A DNA stretch of 64,000 bases from a virus, in the IMG/VR virus record IMGVR_UViG_3300037606_000123, positions 1-64,000 of that record. One strand, given 5' to 3'. The position numbers and the translations under genes were made by a program. Below, one piece after another: positions 29,083-48,941 of this stretch (the stretch's first letter is position 1; each line of letters begins with the position of its first letter). The notes below the pieces were generated by a model. It was not told the origin of the DNA. It worked only from the letters and a program-made list of their open reading frames with translations, and did no database searches.

Positions 29083-29167
29083 TACCGCTAGTAGGAATCG
29101 AACCTACAATTGAGTTTCCTCAAACTGGATATGAGCCAGTCACTATTACCAATCTGATCATAGCGGC
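29083..29167 (-). tRNA. Non-canonical tRNA: CAU anticodon on a type II (long variable arm, Leu-like) body
   Basis: GCCGCTA/TAGCGGT acceptor, A73; ACTGG-CTCATAT-CCAGT; V-arm TTGAG-GAAA-CTCAA; GTAGG-TTCGATT-CCTAC; weak D-stem. Confidence 0.85.
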
Positions 29168-29349
29168 ATTTCTTCAAATTCTATATCATCAATAGTATTA
29201 CAAAACATATAGAATTCTACATCTTGTAATACATGTTCTGTATGAATAAATTTCATATATTTTTGTACTATATTAATATCAGCAAATTGATCTTTTCTAA
29301 TACGTCTTTTTAAATAATATAATTTATTATTATTTTGAACTATTTCCAT
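29158..29349 (-). CDS. Small hypothetical protein
   Basis: 63 aa; last codons overlap the 5' end of the CAU tRNA. Confidence 0.55.
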   Translation of the reverse strand: MEIVQNNNKLYYLKRRIRKDQFADINIVQKYMKFIHTEHVLQDVEFYMFCNTIDDIEFEEMPL

Positions 29350-29756
29350 AAATTTATTATATTTTTAATTTCATTTATATTTTCAACTGTTAATCCTATA
29401 TATGATTTTTTAATCGGTACAACATTTAAAACATATGGTATAATATCACGAACATTATCATCAATCACAATATAATTATCAATACAATTATTAGATAACC
29501 ATATAGCAATTTCTTCACCACGTTCAATTCCTAATACATCAGTATAATCTAATATTTCAACATCAATACCATGACCGTAAAATATATTTTGTAATTCATG
29601 TAATTTATAATGTATTCTCCATGTTGATGTTATAACCGGTTGTAAATTAAATTCATTACATATATCAGAATACATTTTACAACATTTTTTATTCCATTTT
29701 TTTGGATTGTTTATTTGTAAAACACCATCAATATCTGTAAATATTATATTTTTCAT
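29340..29756 (-). CDS. HAD-superfamily phosphatase (HAD_SAK_2-like, RNA-repair associated)
   Basis: Start MKNIIFTDIDGVL (DxD); VITSTWR, RGEEI, YIVIDD. The ORF-track 5' extension is tRNA-Cys. Confidence 0.8.
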   Translation of the reverse strand: MKNIIFTDIDGVLQINNPKKWNKKCCKMYSDICNEFNLQPVITSTWRIHYKLHELQNIFYGHGIDVEILDYTDVLGIERGEEIAIWLSNNCIDNYIVIDDNVRDIIPYVLNVVPIKKSYIGLTVENINEIKNIINLWK

Positions 29757-29760
29757 TTTG

Positions 29761-29831
29761 AGTTGGAAATCGGGATCGAACCAATATAACTGGTTTTGCA
29801 AACCAGCGCCTAACCATTCGGCCATTCCAAC
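29761..29831 (-). tRNA. tRNA-Cys(GCA)
   Basis: GTTGGAA/TTCCAAC, U73, CTGGT-TTGCAAA-ACCAG, TTCGATC T-loop. Confidence 0.95.
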
Positions 29832-30007
29832 ATTTTATAATAACGTCGTAACCTAAATATCATTGACGTTCATTACACTGCACAAATCGTTTAACATTTA
29901 TTAATATGCCGAAACAGGGAAAAGTTACTAATTGAACTAAGTTTATATATCTATCAATACTGAATTGTACACTTCAATAAATCAGTGTATATAACTAGTT
30001 CAAAATG

Positions 30008-30080
30008 AGCCTGATACCGGGATCGAACCGATGACAACCGCTTTACAAAAGCGGTGCTCTACCAACTGAGCTAATCAGGC
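30008..30080 (-). tRNA. tRNA-Thr(UGU)
   Basis: GCCTGAT/ATCAGGC, GCTC/GAGC D-stem, CCGCT-TTTGTAA-AGCGG. Confidence 0.95.
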
Positions 30081-30504
30081 AAAATGTATTTACGTTTCAA
30101 ATACTAAGCAGGTTTAGTTGCAGACTTTCCTTCTTCTGAATGATTCTTTTTTTATACATACGTCTACATATAATGGCATGTTATTCCAGTTTTCAACACT
30201 AAGCCAAAGTGTTATCAATCATCTTAAATATAGTTTACAATCTATACAATATTTTTTAATATAAGTTATTAAATTATCAATTTCAACATTAAATAATTCA
30301 TTTTTAAATGTTAATCTATTATTTAATTCATGATCATTTTTTAATTTTAAACCAGATTCTAAAATATCATTTATTAACAATATAGATTTATCTAATTGTA
30401 CGGTTTTAAATTTTAATTATGTTTTTAAATCATAAATTTCTCCATCTAATTCTTCAATATAATTAATTAATTCTTCATTTGATAATGTATTTAAAATTAA
30501 TTTA

Positions 30505-31170
30505 TTATATTTCTTCATTTTGTTTATCTTCTTCTGTAAATTTTGTTTCTTCTGTAAATTCCGTCATATATGAATAATCTGTAGAATATGCACCAATATT
30601 TTCTACACTATAAATAGTCATATCTATTTTATAACCAGGGTTTTTATCTATTCTATTATATGTCCATGATTTATCCATCCAAATAATTCTATTATTTGGG
30701 TAAATAAAATAATTACCATTATCCATTTTAAATACATGTCCACATTTATGTTCAGGCGTTTCAGAAAAATTTGTATCGATCATATTTCTATCCTGATGCG
30801 ACCAATCTAATGTAAATAAATATACACCTTGTCTTTTTACATTAGTTATTGATATTAAATCTGCTCTCAATCCACTCAATCTTTCTCTTACGTTAACTGC
30901 AATATATGAACTAAAACAATCCCAATAAATATATTCGCTCAGTGGTAAAATTTCAGCATCTTTTTTCCAAACAAATGCATGTATTGGTCTTCTTGTCCAA
31001 TTAACACCATTTTCTAGAAATCCTTCAAATAAGGGTATTCTTTTTTCTATTGAGGCAACAGAATGAACATCAACTAATGTAAATTCTTTATGACCTTTTT
31101 CATTGTTAAATAAAAATTCATTTCTTATAAAACATGTAATTGTTGGTATGTTTGCATTTAAATACGACAT
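30505..31170 (-). CDS. Conserved phage protein of unknown function
   Basis: MSYLNANIP..RRPIHAF..WDCFS..YLFTLDW..EHKCGH..PNNRIIW. Confidence 0.8.
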   Translation of the reverse strand: MSYLNANIPTITCFIRNEFLFNNEKGHKEFTLVDVHSVASIEKRIPLFEGFLENGVNWTRRPIHAFVWKKDAEILPLSEYIYWDCFSSYIAVNVRERLSGLRADLISITNVKRQGVYLFTLDWSHQDRNMIDTNFSETPEHKCGHVFKMDNGNYFIYPNNRIIWMDKSWTYNRIDKNPGYKIDMTIYSVENIGAYSTDYSYMTEFTEETKFTEEDKQNEEI

Positions 31171-31409
31171 TATCTTACTTAGTTATTTTTTTTATTATTT
31201 ATAAACACATACGTACATACATAAAATATATTACCTTTTTACAAGATTCAAACATGTTTAAACTCTCATCTAAGAAACATGGTAATTTATTTAATTACGT
31301 ATGTACGTATATAGTTAATCCAAAATATACATTCTTAGCAGTTATTTCAAGAATAACATTCACTAAAGGGATATTAACTATTTGTTTATTTTGTTTGTAA
31401 TTAAAAAAA

Positions 31410-32155
31410 AAAAATCAATCTTGGTAGTTGCTAAAGCTACATATTTTAAATCAAGCCCTGACCGCATTATCTCTTTAAAAACAGTCTACCTCCTGAAAGC
31501 TTACTGTTAAATCTGAAATACCTTATAATAAACAACATCTTTTAGCAGATTGTAACAAAAGGATTTGGGCTTTTTATGTGGTCGCGTCACTTGTTAAATC
31601 CTCACCTTTCCAATTCCGTATACAGATCTCCTAAAGATCTGTTGCATATATTGTTAGTCACTGTTTATTATAAACAAGATTAATTTTAATGTTTTATGTA
31701 AACAATTTCCATCTCATTTCGAGTTCGTCTTTAGTTTACACTGGTTTAAACGTTTAACCTTAATCTAAGACACACTTTGATTAGTAAATAATATAAACTC
31801 TACAAAGTTGTACCTTGACATAACAAAACTATTATAGGCTTATGTTTAAGTTCTGTTTCTTACGTGTTATAGCTTCAAATATACACCCACAATTGGATAA
31901 AGTTTAATATTTTTTTATTATTAATTTTTTACTAGATAATTCTTTTAATAACTAAAGATATAATACTCACATATTCTTATTACACCCCACGTCATTAATG
32001 ACAGAATTATTACTTTTAAATTGAAATTTATATTTTTCATTTCATTAAATTATGTTTTCCTACTCATAAGGCTTTTCAGAATACTCCCCGTTTTTTAAGT
32101 GTTTTCTGGTCTTCACTTTTTAAAATTATGTATTCATTAGATTACAAATAATTAA
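31410..32155 (-). ncRNA. Candidate large ornate ncRNA (ROOL/GOLLD size class), boundaries approximate
   Basis: ~750 nt without a long ORF in a tRNA cluster; own TATATTTG promoter (32166-32173); many short and long-range helices; ends in hairpin plus T-tract. Confidence 0.65.
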
Positions 32156-32220
32156 TTTTACAAAACAAATATACATATAATATTTTAATAATAAAAACAA
32201 TTATTAATATTTATTTTTTG

Positions 32221-32303
32221 TACTCTTAGCAAGACTCGAACTTGCACTCTCTTGCGAGAACCGGGTTCTAAAGCCGGGGTGTCTACCATTCCACCATAAG
32301 AGC
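32221..32303 (-). tRNA. tRNA-Leu(UAG)
   Basis: GCTCTTA/TAAGAGT, A73, GGTAGAC D-loop, TT-TAG-AA loop, V-arm TTCTC-GCAA-GAGAG. Confidence 0.92.
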
Positions 32304-32394
32304 ATTTGGGTAGAACCAAACGCGTTTTGTCTACCGAGACCTTGTCGTTAAATTATTACTAACCAGAGCGAAACAAGACACAGTTTTAATATTG

Positions 32395-32468
32395 TAGTGC
32401 TAACAGGACTCGAACCTGTGACATTCTCGGTATCAGCGAGATACTCTAACCAACTGAGTTATAGCACT
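32395..32468 (-). tRNA. tRNA-Ile(GAU)
   Basis: AGTGCTA/TAGCACT, TCTCG-CTGATAC-CGAGA, ACAGG-TTCGAGT-CCTGT. Confidence 0.95.
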
Positions 32469-32472
32469 ATGT

Positions 32473-32590
32473 ATTAGAGATTTGGTATTTTAGCACTCTA
32501 ATGTTAAAAGTAATACCTTAACTTTTGCTACCATTCATCATGTTTCAGATCATGCAATGGTTGTTATTTTATTATCTGAGTCAAATAACA
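32473..32590 (-). ncRNA. Four-hairpin spacer RNA with two putative kissing-loop pairs
   Basis: Loops TCAGAT/ATCTGA and GGTATT/AATACC are complementary between adjacent hairpins. Confidence 0.55.
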
Positions 32591-32604
32591 AACTTCTGAT
32601 AGGT

Positions 32605-32727
32605 TGTTGTTGATAGGATTCGAACCTATAATAGTACCATACTCTTTGTATCAAAACAAATACACAGATTTGAACTGTGATAATCAGTCTCTTAGACCGA
32701 CCTGTCTACCAGTTTCAGCACAACAAC
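32605..32727 (-). tRNA. tRNA-Leu(AAG)-like gene with a 54-nt variable region (non-canonical or pseudo)
   Basis: GTTGTTG/CAACAAC, CTG-AAACTGGTAGA-CAG, TCGGT-CTAAGAG-ACTGA, ATAGG-TTCGAAT-CCTAT. Confidence 0.75.
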
Positions 32728-32814
32728 GATTTATTAGTCTATCCTAATAGTCATTAGAATTCATTTTCACCTTAAAGTGGAACATCTAATCAACACACTC
32801 GTTTTTTTATTTTG

Positions 32815-32903
32815 TTGTATTGACAAGATTCGAACTTGCATAATGTCTGTCCTCAGTATCAAAACCTACTAACAAACCGCGTCACCAATTGCACCACAAT
32901 ACA
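32815..32903 (-). tRNA. tRNA-like gene with an extended anticodon arm (isotype undetermined)
   Basis: Intact acceptor TGTATTG/CAATACA, D-arm and T-arm; stem GTTTG/CAGAC encloses 23 nt. Confidence 0.7.
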
Positions 32904-32953
32904 AAGAACAATAGTTTTTTGTTCTATTTTACCATTCATTAAATATTCTATTG

Positions 32954-33261
32954 TACACCAGACGGGACTTGAACCCGTACGCCTTTTAGGGGCAAGGGAT
33001 TTTCATACCACTATAGTTTTCACTACCAACGGACTGTTGTTTGTGGTCTGGACTATCTCTCAATCATGTCGTATAAATACGATTTAGACCACTCCCGTTT
33101 AGTCTCTACACGTTCACCACTATTTTCATAGTTTAGCTTCGCTCGGGATTGCCATTTTAAAGGGTTCCCCGAATTTGAGAGTGTATGCATTTATATCTTT
33201 TCAAATATAACGCTCAATTTTTATTTAAGTCCCTCATGTCTACCAATTCCATCACCGGTGC
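32954..33261 (-). tRNA. tRNA-Leu(UAA) interrupted by a group I intron
   Basis: Exons 33261-33227 and 33003-32954 join to AGGGA-CTTAAAA-TCCCT; GCACCGG/CTGGTGT acceptor, A73. Confidence 0.93.
33004..33226 (-). ncRNA. Group I self-splicing intron (IC3-like, trnL-UAA type), 223 nt, no ORF
   Basis: Inserted after U34; P AATTCGGGGAAC, Q AATCCCGAGC, R GTGTAGAGACTAAACGG, S AGAGATAGTCC; terminal G. Confidence 0.9.
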
Positions 33262-33344
33262 ATTTGTTATAAACTATCCTCAAATACTTCACGGTTTATT
33301 ATCCGTTTCATTATATTGTGTCCTATAACATTTTTTATTTAATC

Positions 33345-33360
33345 CAATACGTCAAAGATC
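33345..33360 (-). promoter_or_regulatory. boxA-like antitermination element upstream of the tRNA array
   Basis: GATCTTTGACGTATTG; related GTTCTTTGA lies just 5' of tmRNA. Confidence 0.5.
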
Positions 33361-33369
33361 GTTTATCTT

Positions 33370-33600
33370 TTAATCTTTATAGTTCTTTAATTTACAACAA
33401 CGAGCATCATTAAATGAGATGTTATTTTTTCTTGCAAAATTAGAACGCACTCTATCAGAATTGTTATAACCATCTTCTGCATAAACTAATGCTTCTTTGG
33501 TTCTGTTTGCATCTGATGCTACAAACATTGTTTGTTTTACTTTACTTCTGTCTAAAATATCTAATAATTTACAGACAGGTATAATATTTGCAATACTCAT
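33370..33600 (-). CDS. Small hypothetical protein leading the tRNA operon
   Basis: 76 aa, downstream of a minus-strand TATATTTG promoter near 33626-33633. Confidence 0.55.
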   Translation of the reverse strand: MSIANIIPVCKLLDILDRSKVKQTMFVASDANRTKEALVYAEDGYNNSDRVRSNFARKNNISFNDARCCKLKNYKD

Positions 33601-33914
33601 ATTTTATTTTATTTATTTTATAAAACAAATATAAGTATTTTTTTTTAATTATAAAAGCATTTAAAAAATAATAATAAAAAAAAATTGGACTCATATTTCT
33701 ATGGTCCAATTTAATTTATATTTTTTAAATAAATTTAACCCATAGTTTTTTTAGTACATAATAAAATTGTGCACATGCTAATTGTAAGGGTTAATATTTT
33801 ATTTATATTTTTCATAATAGTTATATGTTATATATATGTAAAAGTTTACTCTTCTTTTTAATATTATTTGAAAAATATATAATATATAATATAAATTATA
33901 AATGCATAATTATA

Positions 33915-34484
33915 ATGTCTAAATATATTTTTAATAAATTAATAAACAACAATGTTAAAATAACAAATACAGTAACTGGTGATATATCATTCTTATCACC
34001 AGATAAGAATGTTTCGTTATTAAATAAACATATAAATAATATAAATACATATATTATTGAAATTTCTACTAGTAGTGATAATAAAAAAATGTATGATAAA
34101 ATAATTATTCCATATAATGAAATAGATTTATTATCATCTGTACCGACATTTGTTGCAACAACACCCGAAGATTTTATTACTGAATTAAATACAAAATATT
34201 TTTTTGTAGTAGTTAACATTTCAATTGATTCTATTTCAGTTAATACAGGACATCTTAGAGTACCTAATATAATTAGGACTAATGGTATAGGTATTATTAA
34301 TAGTATAGTGTATGATTTTACTGTTGCTAATGTTGGAAATTTAAATGGTTTTATTCTAAATAATATTATAAAACCTGGAGAATCTCTTAGTTTCGAAGCT
34401 GGTGCTATAAATAACTATTATGCAAGTAATATTATTGTATATGATGGAACAGATACAGAATTGATAATTATATATAACAATTAA
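33915..34484 (+). CDS. Probable virion structural protein
   Basis: ORF 33825..34484; MSKYIF likely start. Confidence 0.6.
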   Translation: MSKYIFNKLINNNVKITNTVTGDISFLSPDKNVSLLNKHINNINTYIIEISTSSDNKKMYDKIIIPYNEIDLLSSVPTFVATTPEDFITELNTKYFFVVVNISIDSISVNTGHLRVPNIIRTNGIGIINSIVYDFTVANVGNLNGFILNNIIKPGESLSFEAGAINNYYASNIIVYDGTDTELIIIYNN

Positions 34485-34487
34485 ATT

Positions 34488-34895
34488 ATGAGCACAAATA
34501 TATCTATAAAATTAAATAAGGGGTTTATAGCAGTTGAAAATTATGATGCATTACCATCTGTTGTTACTAATATTAATGGACATTATTGGGTTATTGCTAG
34601 TCAAGGAATAGCCTGGTTACCGTATTCAGTAGGTGGTACATATCACCCAAAAGGTATTTATTTTTCTGATGGTTTCACATGGACACATATAGATACACCG
34701 TTTCAAGCAACACAAGGAGAAGTAAATATTGGATTGAATGATGACAAATTTTTAACACCTTCAACATTCAATGAGTCTGCATTAATAAAGTCTAAAGTGA
34801 ATATAGCAACAAATCAAATTTTTTTAATTGATCAAGCTGCAATATTAATAAAAAATCAACGAATATTTGTTGATTTTTTAACAAAAATACAATAA
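34488..34895 (+). CDS. Probable tail-fibre-associated protein
   Basis: GTYHPKGIYFSDGFTW; ATQGEVNIG..LTPS. Confidence 0.55.
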   Translation: MSTNISIKLNKGFIAVENYDALPSVVTNINGHYWVIASQGIAWLPYSVGGTYHPKGIYFSDGFTWTHIDTPFQATQGEVNIGLNDDKFLTPSTFNESALIKSKVNIATNQIFLIDQAAILIKNQRIFVDFLTKIQ

Positions 34896-34985
34896 ATAAA
34901 TAAATAATATTTGTTGATTTTATAACATAAACGCATTAAATAAATAATATATAAATATACAAATAATAAATAAACAAATAAATAA

Positions 34986-35192
34986 ATGCCAACAATAGAA
35001 GAAGCAATTATAAATTTAACCACAGAAACAACGGCATTATTAGATGCAGTTAATATTTCAAAATTAACGATAGAGTCTAATATTGCTGCAGCTGTTTTAG
35101 TTTCAACAAATGCTGCAATCGAACCATTGTTTGTTGTATCAACTAATCTTATAAATACACAAGCATTACTTGTAACGTTTATTAGTTTATAA
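34986..35192 (+). CDS. Small helical protein
   Basis: MPTIEEAIINLTTETTALLDAV resembles the N-terminus of the next gene. Confidence 0.65.
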   Translation: MPTIEEAIINLTTETTALLDAVNISKLTIESNIAAAVLVSTNAAIEPLFVVSTNLINTQALLVTFISL

Positions 35193-35210
35193 AAAATAAA
35201 TAAAATAAAT

Positions 35211-35810
35211 ATGTCAACTACAGAACAATTATTAGCAGATTTAACCACAGCAACAACTTTATTAACAAATGCAGTTGCCGTACAACAAATAGCAGTAAAT
35301 GATGCAGTTTCACAATTTGCTTCTGTAATTAATAAAGTTAATACAGAATTGAATTATGTAGATAATACATCAGATGCAAACAAATCTGTTAGTAATGCAA
35401 CAACAGAAGCATTATCTTTTAAACAGAACACACTTGTGTCTGGCGTAAACATAAGTACGGTCAACGGTTTATCTATATTAGAAGGTCAACCATTAGTAAT
35501 AGAAAGAAGTGCAACATCACTCGTAAGTCTTGAATACGATAATAGAGATACTTTAAGATTAGAACCTTTGTTACCAAGCATATTAGATGATTCTGTTGTT
35601 GTTGAAGGTATTGGTTTATTAATGTTTGTGACAACACAGCTTGAACCAGATGATGATGAAACATGTTTTACGTCATTGATAGGACAATGGTTATTATCTG
35701 TTCCTGCACCAGATTTATTAGACGCTTGGGCAACCGATGAAAGACATTTTAACGATGAACTTGACGAAGATGAAGTAACAAGATTATCAACAAGTTTTGT
35801 TGGTTTATAA
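35211..35810 (+). CDS. Probable tail-fibre-associated protein
   Basis: LNYVDNTSDANKSVS..KQNTLVSGVNISTVNGLSILEG fibre-type motif. Confidence 0.65.
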   Translation: MSTTEQLLADLTTATTLLTNAVAVQQIAVNDAVSQFASVINKVNTELNYVDNTSDANKSVSNATTEALSFKQNTLVSGVNISTVNGLSILEGQPLVIERSATSLVSLEYDNRDTLRLEPLLPSILDDSVVVEGIGLLMFVTTQLEPDDDETCFTSLIGQWLLSVPAPDLLDAWATDERHFNDELDEDEVTRLSTSFVGL

Positions 35811-35833
35811 AAAAAAAATATAAAAATATAAAA

Positions 35834-37915: not shown

Positions 37916-37951
37916 TTATAATTTAAAATACAGAATTATTGATCTTTAAAT

Positions 37952-38662: not shown

Positions 38663-38733
38663 TCAGCAATATATTTTCTTAAACAAATTTAAATAAAAAG
38701 GTATAATAATAAAATGTTATACCTTTTTTATTT

Positions 38734-40287: not shown

Positions 40288-40299
40288 ATCTCTTTTTTT
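40267..40299. terminator. Bidirectional intrinsic terminator
   Basis: AAAAAAGAGATTCAAA/TTTGAATCTCTTTTTT. Confidence 0.8.
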
Positions 40300-40304
40300 A
40301 TTAA

Positions 40305-40547
40305 TTATTTTTTAAATTTATTCATAAAAGAACCGGCATTAAAATTACCGATACCGGAAGATGATTGTGATTTTTTATGTTCTTCTTCTTGTTTTTTTCT
40401 TTGTGATGCTAATTCATCATTACGTTTATTTAGACGTTCAACAAATGCTTCAAATTTCCAATATGGTAATTTTTCAATAACATCTATTTGTTGATGTGTT
40501 TGCATTAGAAATTCAAATTCGTTGTCTAATATATTGCTTAAAGGCAT
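40305..40547 (-). CDS. Baseplate hub assembly protein (T4 gp51-like)
   Basis: QTHQQIDVIEKLPYWKFEAFVERL; follows gp26-like gene; ATG at 40547 (TTG at 40556 alternative). Confidence 0.55.
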   Translation of the reverse strand: MPLSNILDNEFEFLMQTHQQIDVIEKLPYWKFEAFVERLNKRNDELASQRKKQEEEHKKSQSSSGIGNFNAGSFMNKFKK

Positions 40548-41523
40548 TTGGAACAATGAAAAGAGCTCTTGGACCGTTGGGAAAGGAAAAGGGTACTTTC
40601 ATCTCCTTTCCGCATTTGTTGCAATTAGTTTTTACGCTATCAACACCAAATCCCATTAAATCTATTGTATCATAAATAAATTCAAAAACTTCATTATTTA
40701 TTTTTGTAAAGTTATATTCTTCTTGTTCTAATTGTTCTATACTTAAACGTTTAACACCTAAACCAGCTTTTATATAACCGATACATTGCATAAATGTTAC
40801 ATTAGGTAATTTTTTACCTTGTGATTTATTTGTTACATAGAATATATAAGTATTAATATCTTCTGTTAAACCTATTGTTGGAGGTGCTAATTTATAATCA
40901 ATATCACCACCATTAATAGTTAAAGGAAATTTATATATTCTATCAATATTATCAAAAAATTCAGCAATATCTTCATTTTCTTCTTTATAAATATAATTAG
41001 CTGGAATTAATTCTACTAATTGTTCATCATTACTATTATTACAATCACAGTTAATTACTTTTTCATTTTTTCTACCATGTTTAGCACTAATTTTAGATAT
41101 TATTATAATTAGTGTATTTCTATCACCGTCTTGTAAATCTTTATATGATCCTAATAGCCCATCAATATTTTGAAATTTAACACAAGATGATAATAATTCA
41201 TTTAATTTTAATTGAACATCATATGGGTGTTCTTCATTAATAACAGCGAAAGCTTGAATTTCTTTTGTTGTTGTTGGTCTAACAAATATGCGTGTTCCAA
41301 TTTTATAAAATTTACCATAAGGTAAATCTTCTAAAGGTATGTTTTGCCATTCATCATTTAATTCAATTTTATCAACTTTTTGTCGTGTATTATTACCAAA
41401 ACTTTCAATATTTGAATTTTCATTAATATGTGTTGTTTGTCTTTCTGTATTAGAAATAAAATCCATTAAATGATCTTCTTTATTTTTGTCTTCATTATTT
41501 TTGTTTTCTATATTATCTGACAT
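40513..41523 (-). CDS. Baseplate hub subunit (T4 gp26-like)
   Basis: FVRPTTTKEI, CDC, KLAPPTIG, terminal CNKCG..PFSFPNG. Confidence 0.6.
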   Translation of the reverse strand: MSDNIENKNNEDKNKEDHLMDFISNTERQTTHINENSNIESFGNNTRQKVDKIELNDEWQNIPLEDLPYGKFYKIGTRIFVRPTTTKEIQAFAVINEEHPYDVQLKLNELLSSCVKFQNIDGLLGSYKDLQDGDRNTLIIIISKISAKHGRKNEKVINCDCNNSNDEQLVELIPANYIYKEENEDIAEFFDNIDRIYKFPLTINGGDIDYKLAPPTIGLTEDINTYIFYVTNKSQGKKLPNVTFMQCIGYIKAGLGVKRLSIEQLEQEEYNFTKINNEVFEFIYDTIDLMGFGVDSVKTNCNKCGKEMKVPFSFPNGPRALFIVPNAFKQYIRQRI

Positions 41524-41594
41524 GCTTTATTAATATTTTTTTATTATAATTTATATATTTTATAAATGTCTTTACCTATTTTTAATTAGATAAT

Positions 41595-41682
41595 AAAAAA
41601 AAACCACAGAGTAGCGAATTCTGTGGTTTCTATAGCCGAAACTATACCCGGTCCTAATCGTGAGACATACGCCTCGGGTTCT
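41595..41682 (-). ncRNA. GC-rich structured element ending in an intrinsic terminator
   Basis: ACCC/GGGT, GAGGC/GTCTC, TATAG/CTATA helices, then AAACCACAGA/TCTGTGGTTT plus U-tract. Confidence 0.55.
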
Positions 41683-41695
41683 TAAAATAATATAA

Positions 41696-42514
41696 TTATA
41701 TTATTTTTATATCTATTTTATTTGTAATAAAAGGATTTAATTTATTTGTTGTAACTAAATTCAAATATAATTCAGGTTTATAAATACTAACATATTCTTC
41801 AATTTTTTGTTTTAACCATGGTATAGTATTGATTAAATATTTTTGTAACCATATATTTATATTTTTACATTCTTCAATATTTGCATCTTCATCATCATAA
41901 AAATTAGAAACTTTATATTTATCTAATATTATTGGTTCAAATTTACTATCTTCTATTTTATATCCGATAATATTTTGTAATATACAATTCATTTTTTTTT
42001 CACTTGTTGTGCCTACAGAATTGATTACCGTAGGATCATTAACAAAAATAAAATCGGTTAATTTAATATTATGTTTATCAAGATTATCTTTCAATTTATT
42101 TAATATTTTTTTGTGTGCTTTTTTATTACCTCTTGCAGTTAAAATATTAATAATATCTTTTGTTCCGGATAAATGTATAATATTATTAATATAAACAAAT
42201 AAATTTTCTGTTTGTTTATCAATTAAATCGTTATCATTATATTCTCTTAATGATAATCCAATATCAATCATTTCAATACTTTTAATTCTTTGTATTTTTA
42301 CAAACAATTCATTTGGTAACCATCCACTAAAACCGTTATATGTAAAATAATGATTATCATTTTTGTAATTACCACTTAATATTAAATATCCATCATTAGG
42401 TTTAATACGTAATATTGGTTTACTTGGATTTTTTTTATCAACAATCCACCATTTACTATTTGTATTCCATAATGTATAATCAGCATCAAACCAATGTATT
42501 ATTTCATTTTTCAT
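41696..42514 (-). CDS. HAD-like hypothetical protein
   Basis: WFDADYTLW (DxD), ILTARG, FYDDEDANI. Confidence 0.55.
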   Translation of the reverse strand: MKNEIIHWFDADYTLWNTNSKWWIVDKKNPSKPILRIKPNDGYLILSGNYKNDNHYFTYNGFSGWLPNELFVKIQRIKSIEMIDIGLSLREYNDNDLIDKQTENLFVYINNIIHLSGTKDIINILTARGNKKAHKKILNKLKDNLDKHNIKLTDFIFVNDPTVINSVGTTSEKKMNCILQNIIGYKIEDSKFEPIILDKYKVSNFYDDEDANIEECKNINIWLQKYLINTIPWLKQKIEEYVSIYKPELYLNLVTTNKLNPFITNKIDIKII

Positions 42515-42855
42515 ATTTTTTCAATTGGAAAATCACCTTTTATTTTTATACCTTTAAATGTTCCATCTTTAAACACACCATTATTCCATGTACCTTTAAA
42601 TGTTCCGTTTAAAAATATACCACCATTCCAAATACCAGATCTAAAATCACCAGTTTCAAATATACCCCATTCCCATACACCCCAATAAAAAACACCAGAT
42701 TTCCAATGTAATAAATTGTTTTTTATTTCAATACATACATCATCTAATTCACATGTTAATAACCAATTAAAATTAGATGTATATAAATACTGTTCTATTA
42801 ATTTAGAAGATGTTAAATGTAAACTTTCCGTTTTAAGTTCTAAAAATCTTTGCAT
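42511..42855 (-). CDS. G-x-W/F pentapeptide repeat protein
   Basis: SGVFYWGVWEWGIFETGDFRSGIWNGGIFLNGTFKGTWNNGVFKDGTFKG. Confidence 0.75.
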   Translation of the reverse strand: MQRFLELKTESLHLTSSKLIEQYLYTSNFNWLLTCELDDVCIEIKNNLLHWKSGVFYWGVWEWGIFETGDFRSGIWNGGIFLNGTFKGTWNNGVFKDGTFKGIKIKGDFPIEKI

Positions 42856-42868
42856 ATTAAATTATATA

Positions 42869-43321
42869 TTAAAATAATGATTCAATACTAGAACCATATA
42901 CTAATTGATCAAAGGATTGTTCAAAAATTATATTAACCGGTATTTCACCTTTATTTGCATTGTAAAACATATTAGCCATTTGTTGTATACTAAAACCTGA
43001 TAATAATTTTATATTTACACCGTAAGCAATAAAAAATTCCATTTGTGGATTATCGATAGCAAATAAATATAATTCTCTTATATCTGATTTTATTTTCTTT
43101 GTTGGAATAGAAGGATTCTTTTTTATGCGTAGGTCTTTAGTTATAATACCATACGACTGTCCCATTATACCTTTTCCTTGTCCCTGTTGCGCCCCAAATG
43201 TTTTTTTGGCAATTAGTGCAGCTCCTTTACCATGACGTCCCTCAGGGTTCGAACCAAATACAAATATTTGATTTGATTCTAATTTATTTAAATGTCCGGT
43301 ATATGTTTTTCTTTTATTCAT
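42869..43321 (-). CDS. Conserved phage protein (FVFGSN..GxHGxGAA family)
   Basis: IFVFGSNPEGRHGKGAALIA..GQSYGI. Confidence 0.7.
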   Translation of the reverse strand: MNKRKTYTGHLNKLESNQIFVFGSNPEGRHGKGAALIAKKTFGAQQGQGKGIMGQSYGIITKDLRIKKNPSIPTKKIKSDIRELYLFAIDNPQMEFFIAYGVNIKLLSGFSIQQMANMFYNANKGEIPVNIIFEQSFDQLVYGSSIESLF

Positions 43322-43329
43322 ACATATAT

Positions 43330-43776
43330 TCAATTTTGTAAATAATCATATACATCTATCCAATTTTTAAATTTATCAGATCCAAAATGAATTAATTCAC
43401 CAGTGAATTTATCTTGACCACGACCAAAATTGTGATCATCAATTAAATAATCACCAATTAATAATGATTTATTAGAACATATAATTAGTTTTTCTATCCA
43501 TTCTTCACCAACATTATTTTTTATCCAATATGCTTTTTCTGTATAACATAATAAATTTTTAAAACTTGGTGCTGTTAAAAACCAAATATCATATTTAGAT
43601 TGTAATAGTTTAATAGTTTCAATACTATCTTTAATAATTTCCAATTCCATAAAAAAACCATATTGTGATTGTGGATATGGTTGTTCAGGTGTTTTAATTT
43701 TATATTTACTATATGCTTTTTCAACATCCGCTAAAACTCCATCAATATCTATGTATAATATTTTTTTATCTATCAT
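43330..43776 (-). CDS. 5'(3')-deoxyribonucleotidase (NT5C-type HAD)
   Basis: ILYIDIDGVLAD, FLTAP, EKAYWI, GDYLIDD. Confidence 0.85.
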   Translation of the reverse strand: MIDKKILYIDIDGVLADVEKAYSKYKIKTPEQPYPQSQYGFFMELEIIKDSIETIKLLQSKYDIWFLTAPSFKNLLCYTEKAYWIKNNVGEEWIEKLIICSNKSLLIGDYLIDDHNFGRGQDKFTGELIHFGSDKFKNWIDVYDYLQN

Positions 43777-43806
43777 ATTTATTATAAGTGAAATTTTATA
43801 AAATGT

Positions 43807-44523
43807 TTAATTTTTCATTATAAATTTAACATAATGTATAGTTTCAGAAATATTTGGAATATTATTACCGGCTAATTGTACATTACCAGGTCCGGCATTA
43901 TATGCAGCAAATGTTAAATCCCATCGTTTATATTTTTTATATAAATAATCTATATAAAATGTACCAATTAATATGTTTTGTTTATTTTTATCTAAATGAT
44001 CTATATTACCATTTTTAGTAACATAACGTTTTTTAATTGCAGTAAATGTTTTTGGCATAACTTGCATATAACCATTTGCACCCATATGTGATTTAGCGTT
44101 AGGATTATATTTACTTTCTTGCCATATCAATCTATAAATATATTTTAATGGAATAGAATATTTTTTTGACATTTTATGAATTAACATTATATCATCTTTA
44201 TTAATTTTTTCAGGTATTAATATTTTACCATGTTTAAAAGCTAAATACCTATAATAATCACCATCTTGTTTTAATGAATCTAATTCAATTAAATCAAATA
44301 ATAATGAATCATTAACATAATGAATAGAATCATTATTAAATGTTAAATCATTAATAGTTAAATTTAAATCTGTGATTTTATTATCACGAAATTTATAACC
44401 ATATAACCAACTACTACTAATAGAAATTAATAACATTGGTATAATGATATATTTTTTTTTTGATTTTGTATTAAAAATATATGTAAAATAAATACGTTCA
44501 ATAAATCTTTTAATGTTTTTCAT
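43807..44523 (-). CDS. Lytic transglycosylase (SLT domain) with N-terminal membrane anchor
   Basis: LIWQESKYNPNAKSHMGANGYMQVMP; FAAYNAGPGNV; ETIHYV. Confidence 0.9.
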   Translation of the reverse strand: MKNIKRFIERIYFTYIFNTKSKKKYIIIPMLLISISSSWLYGYKFRDNKITDLNLTINDLTFNNDSIHYVNDSLLFDLIELDSLKQDGDYYRYLAFKHGKILIPEKINKDDIMLIHKMSKKYSIPLKYIYRLIWQESKYNPNAKSHMGANGYMQVMPKTFTAIKKRYVTKNGNIDHLDKNKQNILIGTFYIDYLYKKYKRWDLTFAAYNAGPGNVQLAGNNIPNISETIHYVKFIMKN

Positions 44524-44532
44524 AATTATTAA

Positions 44533-44958
44533 TTAAAATGGACAATCGTTGTTTAGTTCTGTAATTATTTTAGTATTACATTCAACCCAAAATTGATATG
44601 GTTTACCTGTTTCATCTAAGGTAAATTTTAAATATGAATTATATTTTTTAGTGTTTTCGCTATTAGTTAATATTTGAATATTTGTAATACAATAACCTAA
44701 AATTTCATCAATGCGATCAATATGAAAACTTGTTTTAGATCTACCTTTACCAAAAATATAATTTGTTTCTATTGCAAATTTTTTAAATTCATTAAATGTT
44801 AATGTAAATTCTTTACCTCTACGTTTTGCATTTGTTTTTAAATTTTGAAATGATGATTGTATAGGATTATTTTCTCTATACTTACGACTAATACATTTAT
44901 AACACATCGTTCTATTTTTAACTTTAGTATTACAACAATATTTTGTTTTACATTTCAT
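44533..44958 (-). CDS. Putative HNH-type endonuclease
   Basis: Cys-rich N-terminus; AKRRGKEFTLT; HIDRIDEILGYCITNIQILTNSEN. Confidence 0.6.
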   Translation of the reverse strand: MKCKTKYCCNTKVKNRTMCYKCISRKYRENNPIQSSFQNLKTNAKRRGKEFTLTFNEFKKFAIETNYIFGKGRSKTSFHIDRIDEILGYCITNIQILTNSENTKKYNSYLKFTLDETGKPYQFWVECNTKIITELNNDCPF

Positions 44959-45084
44959 AATGCAAATATAATAATAATAAATTAAAAAATAGCAAAATTT
45001 GGTAATATTCTTGTACTACCATATTTCAAAACACATATCTCAAATTTTTGTAGCATGTGTATTACTTTTTATTTATATAGAAAT

Positions 45085-45116
45085 AAAAAACCGACTAAAA
45101 TACGTTTAGCCGGTTT
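45085..45116 (-). terminator. Intrinsic terminator after tmRNA
   Basis: Minus-strand AAACCGGCTAAA/TTTAGTCGGTTT hairpin plus U-tract. Confidence 0.7.
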
Positions 45117-45147
45117 ATCTATGAATGTTAAAACATTCGTGCCACGG

Positions 45148-45540
45148 TGGAGGTGGAGGGATTCGAACCCCCGTTTTTATAAGAAAATTCATTATTTTCT
45201 ACATGTTTATTTATCTTATTCACAAGATAACAAAATATTTATTTTTTGTTATAACAAACATTTTATTCAATTTTAAAGTTTGAATAAAAAACAACTTTTT
45301 GTTTACTGATTGGTTAATCCTTTCGGATCGACTTAAGCTGTTGCTAATTCAAAAGCTGTCTCAGTTACTACAGCTGTAGAAGAAACTTCTACTGAACCAC
45401 CTAAGTCAGAAACTAATTTGTTAAAAGAAGTTTCGTTTTTAAAGTTTGCATTTATTTTTTAGTACTTTATTTAAGTGTATTTACAAAAACACTACATGCT
45501 TATATTGATCATACATTACAAATCAAATCCAAACACCCCC
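45148..45540 (-). ncRNA. ssrA: tmRNA
   Basis: GGGGGTG/CACCTCC acceptor with G3.U70 and A73; TTCGAAT T-loop; AATAAAT-GCA resume context; tag ORF 45449..45333. Confidence 0.93.
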
Positions 45541-45612
45541 ATAAATCAAAGAACATATATTTCTATTACAAATATATAAATTATATATTAAAAATAAAAA
45601 TATGTTTAATTT

Positions 45613-46224
45613 TTATTTTATTTTATCAATTGCACCATATGTAATTGCATCTTTAGCTTTCATCCAATTATCACGTTCAGCATCTTTTAAAACTTTTTTA
45701 TATGAAACACCTGTATGTTTAGCTATAATTTCAATTAAATCATGTTTTATACTTTGCATTTCATTATTATAAATAGCAATATCAGTTGCTTGTGAAAAAT
45801 GCATTCCACCTAATGGTTGATGCATCATCATTTTACTATTAGGTAAAATAAATCGATTTCCTTTTTCACCACAAATAGCTAATATAAATGCCATACTTGC
45901 AGCTAATCCTACAACACATGTATACACAGGACAATCAATCATTTGAATTGTATCATAAATAGCTAAACCATCATAAACAGATCCACCTGGACTATTAATA
46001 TACAACCAAATTGGTTCAGATTTATCAGAATTATTATCTAAAAATAATAGTTGTGCTATTATTGTATTTGCAATAAAATCATCTATCTCTTCACCTAAAA
46101 AAATAATTCTATCTTGCATTAATCTATCAAACACTGATAATATTTGCATATTAGAATTACTCTCTTCAATAACCATTGGTGTAAAACTTTTTGGTTTTTT
46201 AAATACTGATGAAACTTTTGTCAT
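45613..46224 (-). CDS. clpP: ATP-dependent Clp protease proteolytic subunit
   Basis: DRIIFLG, YINSPGGSV, GLAASMA (Ser), MMHQP (His), RDNWM (Asp). Confidence 0.95.
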   Translation of the reverse strand: MTKVSSVFKKPKSFTPMVIEESNSNMQILSVFDRLMQDRIIFLGEEIDDFIANTIIAQLLFLDNNSDKSEPIWLYINSPGGSVYDGLAIYDTIQMIDCPVYTCVVGLAASMAFILAICGEKGNRFILPNSKMMMHQPLGGMHFSQATDIAIYNNEMQSIKHDLIEIIAKHTGVSYKKVLKDAERDNWMKAKDAITYGAIDKIK

Positions 46225-46336
46225 ATTTTATAAAATATTTTTTATTTATATGTATAAATATATAACTTGTTTATAAAAAAAAAAACACTATAATTAATTA
46301 TAGTGTTTTTTATAAAAAAAAAAAATAAGAATATGA

Positions 46337-47227
46337 CTATAATACCATTGTTGGCTTATATCCGTATTTAATTTTTAAATCTTCTTGCATTGGACATAAT
46401 TCATTCCAAGAAAAATATTGTCCTGGAATTTCTTCTAACTCAATTAAAATGTTTTTTACAACATCGTCTTCAAATTCTTCATCTTCAAATTCTTCATCAT
46501 AATAATATTTTTCATCACGAGAAAAATATTCTACTTCATCAGTTGCATCATCTTCAACATTACTATTAGTATTATCGTAAATCATTGCAACAGTTCCAAC
46601 ACCACCTGTTATAATTCGCAAATTACCGTTTACACCTTCAACATAAATAAGATCACCCAATTTTGGAATTAATACTGAACCAACTGGTTCATTACTTGAT
46701 TGTTTTGAAATTTCATTATTTATAATATCATCAACAAAAATTTCTAGTTGTGTTTTGGTTTTATATTTACCTAAATTTGGTGCATCAAAATTAATACTGT
46801 TAATAATTTTTTCAAAATCAAAATCATCTTCTGGTGTTTCAAATTTAGATTCTAACTGATCAAAATTAATACTGTTGTTAATTTTTTCAAAATAAGAATC
46901 ATCTAAAGTTGCTTCTGGTGCAATATTAAATTGTTTCATTTTTGTTGGATATAGTGTTGCAAAATTAATACTGTTTTCTTTAATCATTGCAGCTTCAAAA
47001 ATCGCACGACCAGTATGAATATCAAATTTAGTTTCCACTATATTTGTTTTTTGAATTGAATCTGGTAATGAATCTAATTCAACAACTTTTACATTATCTG
47101 TTTTAATATTAAGATTTTTAATAACATCATTGAATGGTGCTGTTGGATCCATACATTCAATAATTTTTTTATCGTTATCGTAAATTGCATACGACGTAGT
47201 ATTTTTTAATGTTATTACTGTTATCAT
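46337..47227 (-). CDS. Acidic hypothetical protein with internal repeats
   Basis: NSINF occurs three times; FEKINNSINFD / FEKIINSINFD. Confidence 0.7.
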   Translation of the reverse strand: MITVITLKNTTSYAIYDNDKKIIECMDPTAPFNDVIKNLNIKTDNVKVVELDSLPDSIQKTNIVETKFDIHTGRAIFEAAMIKENSINFATLYPTKMKQFNIAPEATLDDSYFEKINNSINFDQLESKFETPEDDFDFEKIINSINFDAPNLGKYKTKTQLEIFVDDIINNEISKQSSNEPVGSVLIPKLGDLIYVEGVNGNLRIITGGVGTVAMIYDNTNSNVEDDATDEVEYFSRDEKYYYDEEFEDEEFEDDVVKNILIELEEIPGQYFSWNELCPMQEDLKIKYGYKPTMVL

Positions 47228-47337
47228 GTTTAATTATTTAATTATTTAATTATTTATACAAATATAACAATAATTTTTAATAAACAAAAAATAATATATA
47301 ATTATTCAATATATAATAAAAAAGAATAACATTAAAT

Positions 47338-47694
47338 ATGAAATTACAAATAAACGGTTTTGATATTGAAATAAACACAGATGAAGCAAATATCACAATG
47401 AAAGTAATGGATGCTAATGGAAAAGAATTATCAAATAACACTTTCACACAATCAATGGAACAAACAGATGATGTTATTGATGTAGATATGCCAGAAACAG
47501 ATGAAATAGCTGATGAAGTTGTTGAAGATGAAATAGCTGATGATGTTGTCGAAGATGATGTTGTTGAAGATGATGTTGTTGAAGATGATGAAGTTGAAGA
47601 TGATGAAGTTGAAGATGATGAAGTTGTTGAAGACGAAGTTGGTGAATCTTTTATATTAAATTTTGAAGATTTTAAAAAACAATTAAATAAATAA
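47338..47694 (+). CDS. Acidic low-complexity protein with C-terminal ILNFEDF motif
   Basis: VVEDD/EVEDD repeats; ends GESFILNFEDFKKQLNK. Confidence 0.75.
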   Translation: MKLQINGFDIEINTDEANITMKVMDANGKELSNNTFTQSMEQTDDVIDVDMPETDEIADEVVEDEIADDVVEDDVVEDDVVEDDEVEDDEVEDDEVVEDEVGESFILNFEDFKKQLNK

Positions 47695-47723
47695 AAAAAA
47701 GTCCAGTTTAACTGGACTTTTTT
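47693..47723. terminator. Bidirectional intrinsic terminator
   Basis: A-tract GTCCAGT/ACTGGAC T-tract. Confidence 0.8.
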
Positions 47724-47899
47724 ATTTTAAGAATTTTGTAATTCTATTGCGTCAGCAAGTTTTAATAATGTTGGTAAATCTTCAAATGATTTTGCAACTA
47801 AACCTAATAACTCTTTATTATGATTTTTTTTAGTAACTTTTACTAAAGCTTTTTCTGATGCTGTTTTTTTAACTATTAATTGATTCATATTTTATTTAT

Positions 47900-48442
47900 T
47901 TATTTATTTAAAAATTGATTTTCTACGTCTGGTGTTAAATAAACATTATTATCTGATAAATATAATTTTCCTTTATTAGATAAATAATTTTTAACATCCA
48001 TTGTAATTATAACTCCTGTTGATTTATTTTTTATTGCTTTTTGATTCGCTCTAAATTGAGCCAATTCAAGATTTGTAGTCCAATGTACATGTTGTCTGTT
48101 ACCTGCTCTTAAACTTGATAAAATGATTAAATCATGTGCTTTCTGATCGGTTCCATGATATAACAAAAATGTTTTTTGTATCGATGTAATTTGAGATAGT
48201 TTTTTGTTTATTGCAACATTTGATGAATGACCTTGATTTGCACATATTAATGTTTCATCATCATTAAAACTAAATCTTTTTTTATCGTTTGTTTCAACTA
48301 TATTTTTTAAATCAATTAATGTAATATTAAAATGATTTAAAATACTATCAACACACATCCAACCATCAGAATTTAATTTTAAAGGTGTTGGATCATGTCT
48401 TAATAATTTACTTAATGTTCTTGATATTTTATCTAAATTCAT
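47900..48442 (-). CDS. kptA: RNA 2'-phosphotransferase (Tpt1/KptA)
   Basis: LSKLLRHDP, DKKRF, ANQGHS, LYHGT, GNRQHVH; Arg-His-Arg-Arg catalytic set retained. Confidence 0.9.
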   Translation of the reverse strand: MNLDKISRTLSKLLRHDPTPLKLNSDGWMCVDSILNHFNITLIDLKNIVETNDKKRFSFNDDETLICANQGHSSNVAINKKLSQITSIQKTFLLYHGTDQKAHDLIILSSLRAGNRQHVHWTTNLELAQFRANQKAIKNKSTGVIITMDVKNYLSNKGKLYLSDNNVYLTPDVENQFLNK

Positions 48443-48461
48443 ATTACAATAATATAAATAA

Positions 48462-48941
48462 TTATTCACTTATAAAATATTTTAATACTAACATATTTTC
48501 TAATGTTATATTATCTGGTAATTGATCTAATTCAATTTTATTGAATTCAACAGTTGTTTTCATTTGTAAATTTTTATTATATTTAGAAATCTGTATGTCA
48601 CGTTCTTCAATTATATTAGTATAATTTTTTTTTAATAAATTAATATCAATAAGCCATTGTTCATCTGTTTCATCAATATCGTAACCATTATTTGAATTTA
48701 TTAATGGATTATTTGATGCATCACGTTTAGTATATTTATCACATAAGAATATTCTTTTTTTATCATATTCTTCAAATTCATCTGATGGTTTAACCGAATT
48801 AACCAATTCATTTATTGCATCATCTAAAATAACAATATTTTTAGATATTGTAAATGTAAGTTTTACACCTTCTAGTTTTTTTAATGATTCTAAATTACTT
48901 TTTAAAGCATCTGATAATATAAATAAGTCTATATTTTTCAT
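48462..48941 (-). CDS. Hypothetical protein
   Basis: 159-aa ORF. Confidence 0.65.
   Translation of the reverse strand: MKNIDLFILSDALKSNLESLKKLEGVKLTFTISKNIVILDDAINELVNSVKPSDEFEEYDKKRIFLCDKYTKRDASNNPLINSNNGYDIDETDEQWLIDINLLKKNYTNIIEERDIQISKYNKNLQMKTTVEFNKIELDQLPDNITLENMLVLKYFISE

Follow-up and report, generated by a model that had tools for sequence, protein, structure and literature searches.

A tRNA array with HAD_SAK_2 and a Tpt1-ClpP-tmRNA locus are separately conserved blocks in a fragment of a huge T4-like phage

We analysed the first 64 kb (the window) of the 123,031-bp IMG/VR virus contig IMGVR_UViG_3300037606_000123, which carries a minus-strand tRNA array with an embedded gene for a HAD_SAK_2 phosphatase and, at a distance, genes for the RNA 2′-phosphotransferase Tpt1/KptA, the protease subunit ClpP and a transfer-messenger RNA (tmRNA). 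An initial annotation had combined these elements into one arsenal for tRNA replacement, RNA repair and ribosome rescue, integrated within 20 kb, and had proposed that they act as a coordinated counter-defence system. Comparison with related phages showed that the tRNA array with HAD_SAK_2 and the Tpt1-ClpP-tmRNA genes are two separately conserved clade-level synteny blocks. Together they probably belong to a dispersed translation-maintenance and RNA-healing repertoire of a huge phage, and not to one operon or system. This repertoire agrees with earlier descriptions of huge phages, and the main result is the correction of an over-integrated reading.

We propose that the repertoire would act in three layers. 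The tRNA arrays would supply the most-used codons UUA, AUU, AUA, ACA, GCA, CAA and GGA. The phage-owned tmRNA, with a predicted 38-codon tag, would act together with SmpB and ClpP to free stalled ribosomes and to destroy the tagged products. HAD_SAK_2 and Tpt1/KptA may heal or mature tRNA ends, including ends left by host ribonucleases, and in related phages a CCA-adding enzyme and an RNA ligase would be added to this third layer.

The contig (23.9% GC) has a CheckV completeness of 31%, which implies a genome size near 400 kb. Genes for a T4-type baseplate hub, tail tube, tail fibre and homing endonuclease were identified in the window using Pfam and PHROGs, and the source is a fragment of a huge T4-like phage of approx. 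400 kb. A single public run contains DNA of the contig; it is a salt lake metagenome, which is probably the source, and no RNA runs were listed. An alternative genetic code was ruled out, since long open frames read with translation table 11 already cover 89.5% of the sequence. A search of IMG/VR with exact peptide words of Tpt1 or ClpP revealed no close relatives. The relatives used here were gathered via an alignment of HAD_SAK_2 homologues. They comprise three IMG/VR contigs, G001 (314 kb, 80% complete), G002 (169 kb) and G003 (391 kb, terminal repeats, 100% complete), and closer metagenome contigs (L049-L051, L152 and L153), among which L049 is the closest relative.

Two separately conserved synteny blocks

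The first block has the gene order Leu(UAA) - variable slot - Ile(GAU) - Leu(UAG) - Thr/Cys - HAD_SAK_2 - CAU tRNA, which is common to G001-G003, L049-L051, L152 and L153. As initially annotated, HAD_SAK_2 is embedded between tRNA genes (Table 1), and this position is kept in all of these relatives and in L015. The DxD motif of the protein (F6-T7-D8-I9-D10-G11, with D8 and D10) is invariant among 28 homologues. Outside the clade tRNA genes were found near HAD_SAK_2 at 3/31 loci, with one tRNA each.

The second block, orf206-orf159-Tpt1-ClpP-tmRNA-NT5C, is kept in this order in G001-G003, where Tpt1 and the tmRNA are 1.6 kb apart. In each of the four genomes examined the tmRNA lies directly after clpP, at a distance of 1.6-2.4 kb from Tpt1. 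As ARAGORN misses the tmRNAs of G001-G003, adjacency was scored with Rfam. Among 34 other Tpt1-bearing phage records from outside the clade, a full-length tmRNA match was obtained in five (four above the Rfam cutoff), and in none of these five did it adjoin Tpt1. Because the Tpt1-tmRNA and HAD_SAK_2-tRNA linkages fail or are rare outside the clade, we regard both blocks as synteny at the level of the clade.

The distance between the two blocks amounts to 8-10 kb in G001 and G002, 12 kb in the window and approx. 47 kb in G003, with tail and baseplate genes lying between them. In the window approx. 11 kb of the 20-kb span (33.8-45 kb) are taken up by tail fibre, tail tube, baseplate hub, homing endonuclease, lysozyme and nucleotidase genes. 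Of the initial annotation, Tpt1/KptA and the tmRNA beside clpP were thus recovered, and the integration within 20 kb was not.

Both tRNA-like domains of the tmRNA, 5′ and 3′, were found by ARAGORN. The tag frame comprises 38 codons from the resume codon GCA at tmRNA position 92 (after AAUAAAU) to TAA and reads ANFKNETSF...ELATA; the 9-residue tag called by ARAGORN is the tail of this frame. Homologous tag frames with the same start (...AAUAAA(U/C) GCA AAC) consist of 35 codons in G001 and G002 and of 36 codons in G003, and end with FAA or ELV. The tags of the four phages are conserved at the peptide level (AN-KN...DLG...) despite diverged nucleotides, and it is unusual for a tag of this length to be conserved across a clade and encoded right behind a phage clpP. 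Alignment with solved ClpP structures showed that the triad of Ser (GLAASMA), His (MHQP) and Asp (ERD) is intact, and the ClpP proteins of G001-G003 are 67-69% identical to that of the window, with unchanged position. SmpB is encoded on the contig just past the window end (Table 1) and is also present in G001 and G003, in which 33-94 kb separate it from the tmRNA.

The Tpt1 tetrad R15, H16, R56 and R116 (LLRH, KKRF, NRQHVH) is invariant in 24 homologues and aligns with solved Tpt1. Its widest recurring association is that with tRNA genes, which are located within 5 kb of Tpt1, sometimes abutting it, at 11/41 other huge-phage loci. An alternative role for Tpt1 would be that of an NAD+-dependent modifier, engaged in ADP-ribosylation of 5′-phosphate ends or in a conflict over NAD/ADP-ribose instead of tRNA repair, with its adjacency to clpP-tmRNA merely inherited. 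An ADP-ribosylglycohydrolase gene (E 1.7e-31) directly after the tmRNA in the G003 block would suit such a role, as would the occurrence of Tpt1 in phiCD211 and Klebsiella jumbo phages without RNA-repair neighbours; moreover, Tpt1-family enzymes are reported to ADP-ribosylate 5′-phosphate RNA ends. However, the full R-H-R-R tetrad of a 2′-phosphotransferase is retained, Tpt1 recurs near tRNA genes in other huge phages, and a search of the four genomes for a Macro domain gave none. We therefore consider the modifier role very unlikely and retain end healing or tRNA maturation as the putative function of Tpt1 within the dispersed repertoire.

Several further observations were made in and around this block. 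The ADP-ribosylglycohydrolase gene of G003 is located at 71863-72552 (L072:7853-8662), and at its place the window holds an endonuclease VII-like gene and a lytic transglycosylase gene. In G001 the Tpt1 frame (139418-139915; L062) contains one in-frame TGA, with the called open reading frame (ORF) ending at 122 amino acids (aa); a sequencing error, local recoding or loss of the gene to a pseudogene might each account for this stop. For orf159, just upstream of Tpt1, AlphaFold produced a helical model with a predicted local distance difference test (pLDDT) score of 89.7, for which no PDB fold match was obtained at E <= 0.001. The AlphaFold model of orf296 reached a pLDDT of only 34, and the ESM Atlas provided nothing usable for orf296 and orf206.

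The tRNA array, its intron and a variable slot

Calling of tRNA genes with ARAGORN and Rfam (Rfam tRNA cutoff 29 bits) gave concordant results for five ordinary minus-strand tRNAs, namely Cys, Thr(UGU), Leu(UAG), Ile(GAU) and a CAU tRNA with a long variable arm. Ile(GAU) is kept in all relatives and Leu(UAG) is likewise kept in relatives. Together with two aberrant genes, these tRNAs bear out the canonical and aberrant tRNAs of the initial annotation, which had overlooked an intron-split tRNA-Leu(UAA) and a DUF805 RNA motif. The tRNA-Ile(UAU) noted at the window end was confirmed as well and belongs to a second, plus-strand cluster that continues beyond the window.

Codon usage was determined from 92 long ORFs. 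The codons TTA, ATT, ACA, ATA, CAA and GCA occur at 75.9, 55.5, 44.4, 42.8, 27.0 and 22.2 per 1000, and their readers Leu(UAA), Ile(GAU), Thr(UGU), Ile(UAU) or CAU, Gln(UUG) and Ala(UGC) are all encoded by the phage. The tRNA set thus displays the classical codon-supply pattern and fits the A-ending codons of this 24% GC genome very well.

The CAU tRNA (Met or Ile2) has an 89-nucleotide (nt) counterpart in L049 (85% match), in which the acceptor, anticodon, variable and T stems are kept via paired changes; these changes indicate that the gene for the long-armed CAU tRNA is genuine and under constraint. The CAU tRNAs of other relatives have a length of 71-74 nt. Long variable arms, unusual for Thr, were also seen in tRNA-Thr(UGU) genes of 81-85 nt at L041:4744-4920 and L049:856-939, and expanded variable regions recur in the tRNAs of this phage clade.

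ARAGORN run with introns reported an insertion (36,223) in tRNA-Leu(UAA) after U34, i.e. between U34 and A35. In a focused Rfam search the inserted sequence matched the group I intron family RF00028 with 71.9 bits (cutoff 50; E 1.5e-18), a match that the default-filter Rfam run on the whole window had overlooked. The junctions read ...GGGACUU/AAAUAA... and ...GGUAUG/AAAAUCCC. A U precedes the 5′ splice site, the last intron base is a G, and joining of the exons results in a canonical 86-nt tRNA-Leu(UAA). The gene appears to have gained a group I intron, predicted to be self-splicing. In seven relatives (L049, L152, L153, L015 and G001-G003) Leu(UAA) is intronless. In two others (L050:6448-7070 and L051:6491-7113) it is split at the identical U34/A35 site by an unrelated 537-nt insert, which encodes a 150-aa HNH-like ORF (22.7 bits, below the Pfam cutoff) and has approx. 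84 nt outside this ORF. Rfam found no group I match in the L050 insert.

The two aberrant genes, odd89 and odd123, are located in the slot between Leu(UAA) and Ile(GAU). In odd89 both the acceptor stem and the T arm are intact, and the 23-nt anticodon loop can be read as Thr(AGU) with a 16-nt insert or as Leu(GAG); its minimum free energy was not appreciably below that of shuffled sequences (z -0.27). A Leu-type D arm and the anticodon loop CUAAGAG (AAG) characterize odd123, for which ARAGORN offered Gln(UUG) with a 35-nt intron as an alternative call. This gene contains a 52-nt insert with a second, complete T-arm-like hairpin ahead of the real T arm, as though a piece of a tRNA had been copied into the gene. 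Since odd89 and odd123 are mutual best matches (81%) and the 10-mer GTTTTGATAC is common to both inserts, they are rearranged paralogues in a fast-changing slot of the array. Neither gene was found in the relatives: both are lineage-specific, being absent from L049, and other forms occur in other relatives. Enzymatic splicing of the 16-nt and 35-nt 'introns' in the archaeal/eukaryal manner is unlikely, as the inserts are not conserved and a tRNA splicing endonuclease was sought in the four genomes and not found.

The same slot is empty in L049 and occupied by a normal Leu(GAG) in G001 and G002. L050, L051, L152 and L153 carry a single tRNA body there with four different anticodon loops of 8-9 nt (Table 1), in a surrounding of approx. 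500 nt that is about 96-98% identical between them. Nuclease pressure, scars left by homing endonucleases and relaxed selection would account for the slot pattern equally well. If scars are assumed, homing endonucleases or introns hitting anticodon DNA would have produced the inserts, chimeric duplicates and hypervariability of the odd tRNAs, the intron and the loop. Relaxed selection would help, because the CUY codons read by GAG/AAG anticodons are rare in this AT-rich lineage (CTT + CTC 5.3 per 1000). Consistent with scarring, one U34/A35 site holds a group I intron here and an HNH-like insert in two relatives, a DUF7487 homing endonuclease is encoded nearby, a 2-kb insertion interrupts the array, odd123 has its duplicated T arm and shares a 10-mer with odd89, and the relatives of higher GC content, G001 and G002, retain a normal Leu(GAG). 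On the other hand, both odd tRNAs have completely paired acceptor and T stems, a state that would not survive plain decay for long, the slot body is nearly invariant in the four contigs with the loop alone changing, and no slot-specific endonuclease was identified. Scarring by selfish elements is an unlikely overall explanation in our view. It is quite unlikely, too, that the loop of the slot RNA is under diversifying selection, the RNA serving as a bait or inhibitor of host anticodon nucleases or as a reader of quadruplet or odd codons, with HAD_SAK_2 and Tpt1-clpP-tmRNA as healing and clean-up arms.

A lineage-specific insertion of 2 kb (approx. 32220-30220) is present inside the array and absent from L049-L051 and G001-G003. 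The DUF805 RNA motif lies at its head, followed 12 nt further on by a 31-aa hydrophobic ORF and then by approx. 800 ORF-free nt. No DUF805-family gene is present downstream of the motif, and a limited literature search found no paper on the DUF805 RNA. Approximately 45 nt upstream of the motif there is a TATATTTG box (32166-32173, minus strand), which matches the -7 promoter consensus of Bacteroidota, TAnnTTTG. The motif family is reported from Bacteroidota, and together the box and the motif are a weak hint at Bacteroidota as the host phylum. The 882-nt ORF-free stretch 31171-32052 had initially been annotated as a large non-coding RNA. This annotation is weakly supported: the stretch folds somewhat better than shuffled sequences (z -3.15, 20 shuffles), no match to it was found in the phage collection, and no relative has the insertion that contains it. 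Many phages share a gene of 78-93% nucleotide identity with the 221-aa gene of the insertion, in unrelated contexts. The flanks show no conservation, and the gene looks like recently mobile cargo in the tRNA array. With 549 close homologues in unrelated contexts it was dropped as a synteny anchor.

Structured spacer RNAs, also proposed initially, could not be substantiated: six spacers folded no better than shuffled sequences (z -0.03 to -1.4), and only spacer 30081-30222 is conserved in relatives. This spacer contains a 48-nt element (AAGGAAAGTCTGCAACTAAACCTGCTTAGTATTTGAAACGTAAATACA), for which G001 and G002 show 96% identity across 50 nt, while their HAD proteins are approx. 65-67% identical to that of the window. 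The element is nearly invariant in 7/7 relatives and is always located directly 5′ of a tRNA, the identity of which varies. A hairpin upstream of it (AACAY...RTGTT) displays one compensatory change. Occurring as a single copy in the contig, the element was ruled out as a general promoter.

Table 1. Features of the window, of the remaining contig and of the variable slot in relatives. Positions refer to the window unless another contig is named.
Feature	Position	Strand	Evidence and remarks
tRNA CAU (Met or Ile2)	29083-29167	-	Rfam 43.9 bits; long variable arm
HAD_SAK_2 phosphatase, 139 aa	29340-29759	-	PF18143 E 1.4e-16, 61.5 bits (cutoff 27.5); between tRNA-Cys and tRNA-CAU
tRNA-Cys(GCA)	29761-29831	-	Rfam 61.5 bits
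tRNA-Thr(UGU)	30008-30080	-	Rfam 66.4 bits
48-nt conserved element	30085-30132	-	Ends 4 nt before tRNA-Thr; within spacer 30081-30222
221-aa gene, phrog_3704	30505-31170	-	'Ferredoxin' label in PHROGs, without Pfam match; in 2-kb insertion
DUF805 RNA motif	32053-32121	-	RF03081 70.8 bits (cutoff 51.1)
tRNA-Leu(UAG)	32221-32303	-	Rfam 50.1 bits; canonical class II
tRNA-Ile(GAU)	32395-32468	-	Rfam 71.9 bits; canonical
odd123, aberrant tRNA-like	32605-32727	-	123 nt; Rfam tRNA 40.8 bits
odd89, aberrant tRNA-like	32815-32903	-	89 nt; Rfam tRNA 32.3 bits; ARAGORN anticodon undetermined
tRNA-Leu(UAA) with 223-nt group I intron	32953-33261	-	ARAGORN intron mode and Rfam RF00028
tRNA-Leu(UAA), 5′ exon	33261-33227	-	
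tRNA-Leu(UAA), intron	33226-33004	-	
tRNA-Leu(UAA), 3′ exon	33003-32953	-	
tmRNA	45146-45540	-	RF00023 73.2 bits (cutoff 47), full length; 72 nt downstream of clpP
ClpP protease subunit	45613-46224	-	PF00574 E 7e-69
Tpt1/KptA RNA 2′-phosphotransferase	47900-48469	-	PF01885 E 2.4e-39
Second tRNA cluster: Gly(UCC), Ile(UAU), Ala(UGC), Gln(UUG)	contig 63877-64761	+	ARAGORN; 63877-64000 in window
tRNA-Ile(UAU)	contig 63962-64034	+	ARAGORN
RNase T-family exonuclease	contig 65579-66133		RNase_T E 1.4e-21; after second tRNA cluster
SmpB	contig 66982-67434		PF01668 E 8.5e-41
HD-domain protein	contig 67464-68051		HD E 5.4e-6
276-aa ORF	contig 117788-118618 (L002:1141-1971)	-	2H 23.8 bits (cutoff 27), Acb1 23.2 bits; both sub-threshold
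Slot tRNA	L050:7156-7229		ARAGORN: GAG
Slot tRNA	L051:7199-7271		ARAGORN: 'ga'
Slot tRNA	L152:3882-3955		ARAGORN: 'tcat'
Slot tRNA	L153:3980-4053		ARAGORN: GAU

RNA repair genes and the weighing of counter-defence

In the form initially proposed, coordinated counter-defence would combine substitute tRNAs, odd RNAs as decoys or resistant substrates, healing by Tpt1 and HAD_SAK_2, and clearing by tmRNA/ClpP of ribosomes stalled by tRNA loss. Evasion of tRNA-cutting defences by phage tRNAs is known or has been proposed (PMC10264068, PMC11555353), and both KptA and HAD_SAK_2 are RNA-repair-associated families. The parts are real, their catalytic residues are intact and they are conserved in the clade. 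The four loops on a near-identical slot body are what loop selection would give, which lends the idea of decoys or resistant substitutes some substance, and the proximity of Tpt1 to tRNA genes in other huge phages agrees with a role in counter-defence. The blocks, however, are neither contiguous nor co-oriented as one unit. The odd tRNAs, as lineage-specific genes missing from the closest relative, do not suit the role given to them, and outside the clade Tpt1 is found away from the tmRNA and HAD_SAK_2 away from tRNA arrays.

The tRNA species present argue in the same direction. Leu, Ile, Thr, Cys, CAU, Gly, Ala and Gln tRNAs are encoded, and ARAGORN called none for Lys, Tyr, Arg, Asn, Asp or His, which are the species cut by characterised anticodon nucleases; the CAU tRNA is a possible exception if it is a Met tRNA. 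Furthermore, neither a ligase nor a polynucleotide kinase (PNK) was found in the fragment. Taken together, a single coordinated counter-defence system seems improbable, and any link of these genes to host defence is a putative one.

Some of the evidence also weighs against the dispersed repertoire that we favour. In the 123-kb fragment, which covers only 31% of the genome, searches for RNA ligase (PF09414), RtcB (PF01139), an AAA_33-type kinase (PF13671), ATP-dependent ligase (PF01068) and CCA-adding enzyme gave no match. As ligase, PNK, RtcB and CCA-adding enzyme were not found, the repair chain is incomplete as seen here. Codon supply leaves Leu(UAG), Cys and the CUY-reading odd tRNAs unexplained, as the codons that they read are rare (CTN 9.1 per 1000, Cys 8.5 per 1000). 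In the slot of L050, L051, L152 and L153, 13 of the 14 columns of the loop patch are variable compared with 42/482 elsewhere, a contrast that was chosen post hoc, and this hypervariability points to some conflict beyond simple codon supply. The adjacency of Tpt1, ClpP and tmRNA could reflect a functional link. Finally, the repertoire presupposes that the predicted RNAs are made and that the putative intron is spliced.

Relatives provide some of the missing repair functions. A CCA-adding enzyme is encoded 2-4.5 kb beyond the CAU tRNA in G001-G003. The only clear RNA ligase (PF09414) was found in the complete genome G003, 130 kb from Tpt1. An Rnl1 model gave no match in the fragment, with controls equally silent. 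As a 2′-phosphotransferase, Tpt1 would depend on a source of 2′-phosphate RNA, such as a Trl1-type ligase or a 2H cyclic phosphodiesterase that acts on cut RNA. The 276-aa ORF listed in Table 1 is the only 2H candidate, resembles the anti-CBASS protein Acb1 just as much, lies 70 kb away from Tpt1 and has 353-aa homologues in G001 and G002. Beyond the window, the region 65579-68376 of the contig (L001:80-2877) additionally contains a 286-aa ORF that runs into the start of SmpB, as well as a GIY-YIG-like (T5orf172) gene.

The locus shows a huge phage equipping itself to keep translation running in extreme AT-rich codon usage. Moreover, it offers testable material for studies of phage-host tRNA conflict: a tmRNA family with conserved 35-38-residue tags, always by clpP and Tpt1, a HAD_SAK_2 gene fixed inside a tRNA array, a tRNA-Leu site with a group I intron in one lineage and an endonuclease-bearing insert in another, and a slot whose anticodon loop differs between otherwise near-identical phages.

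Comparison with known systems

The tRNA cluster of T4 holds the stable RNAs C and D, and the T4 enzymes Pnkp and Rnl1 repair tRNA-Lys cut by PrrC. The tRNA cluster of the T4-like phage described here likewise contains non-tRNA or tRNA-like elements, namely the 48-nt element and the two rearranged genes. The Leu(UAA) insertion resembles the group I intron of cyanobacterial and plastid tRNA-Leu(UAA): both sit between U34 and A35, have a group I match in Rfam, a U at the 5′ splice site and a terminal G, and leave exons that join normally. Unlike the cyanobacterial/plastid intron, the phage intron resides in a phage tRNA gene and is sporadic in its clade (absent from seven relatives), and two relatives hold a different, HNH-ORF-bearing insert at the same site.

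RNA repair by KptA and HAD_SAK_2 and the use of phage tRNAs against nucleases are published ideas (PMC9503650, PMC10264068, PMC11555353). Nuclease-evading phage tRNAs include those of T5 directed against retron and PARIS effectors and the loop variants of mycobacteriophages (PMC11555353, PMC10264068). Our phages are alike in having tRNA arrays with one slot that varies only in its loop. In contrast to those tRNAs, other species are affected, and the changes consist of 8-23-nt loops or large inserts and not of point changes in a 7-nt loop.

KptA of jumbo phages has been proposed to function in tRNA repair together with 2H enzymes and ligases (Iyer et al. 2022, PMC9503650). Both this proposal and the T4 Pnkp-Rnl1 system share features with our phages, in that KptA/Tpt1 and a 'Swiss army knife' HAD protein are present and a ligase is encoded in the complete relative. 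Here, however, Tpt1 is linked to clpP-tmRNA and not to a ligase or 2H gene, and ligase, PNK and RtcB were not found in the 123-kb fragment.

Huge phages are known to carry tmRNA, SmpB and many tRNAs (Al-Shayeb et al. 2020, PMC7162821), and ClpP homologues also exist in Lak and other huge phages. The phages studied here resemble the published translation sets (PMC7162821) in their size of >200 kb, their tRNA arrays, tmRNA and SmpB. They differ from them in a clade-conserved tag of 35-38 codons and in the position of the tmRNA right after clpP and 1.6-2.4 kb from Tpt1.

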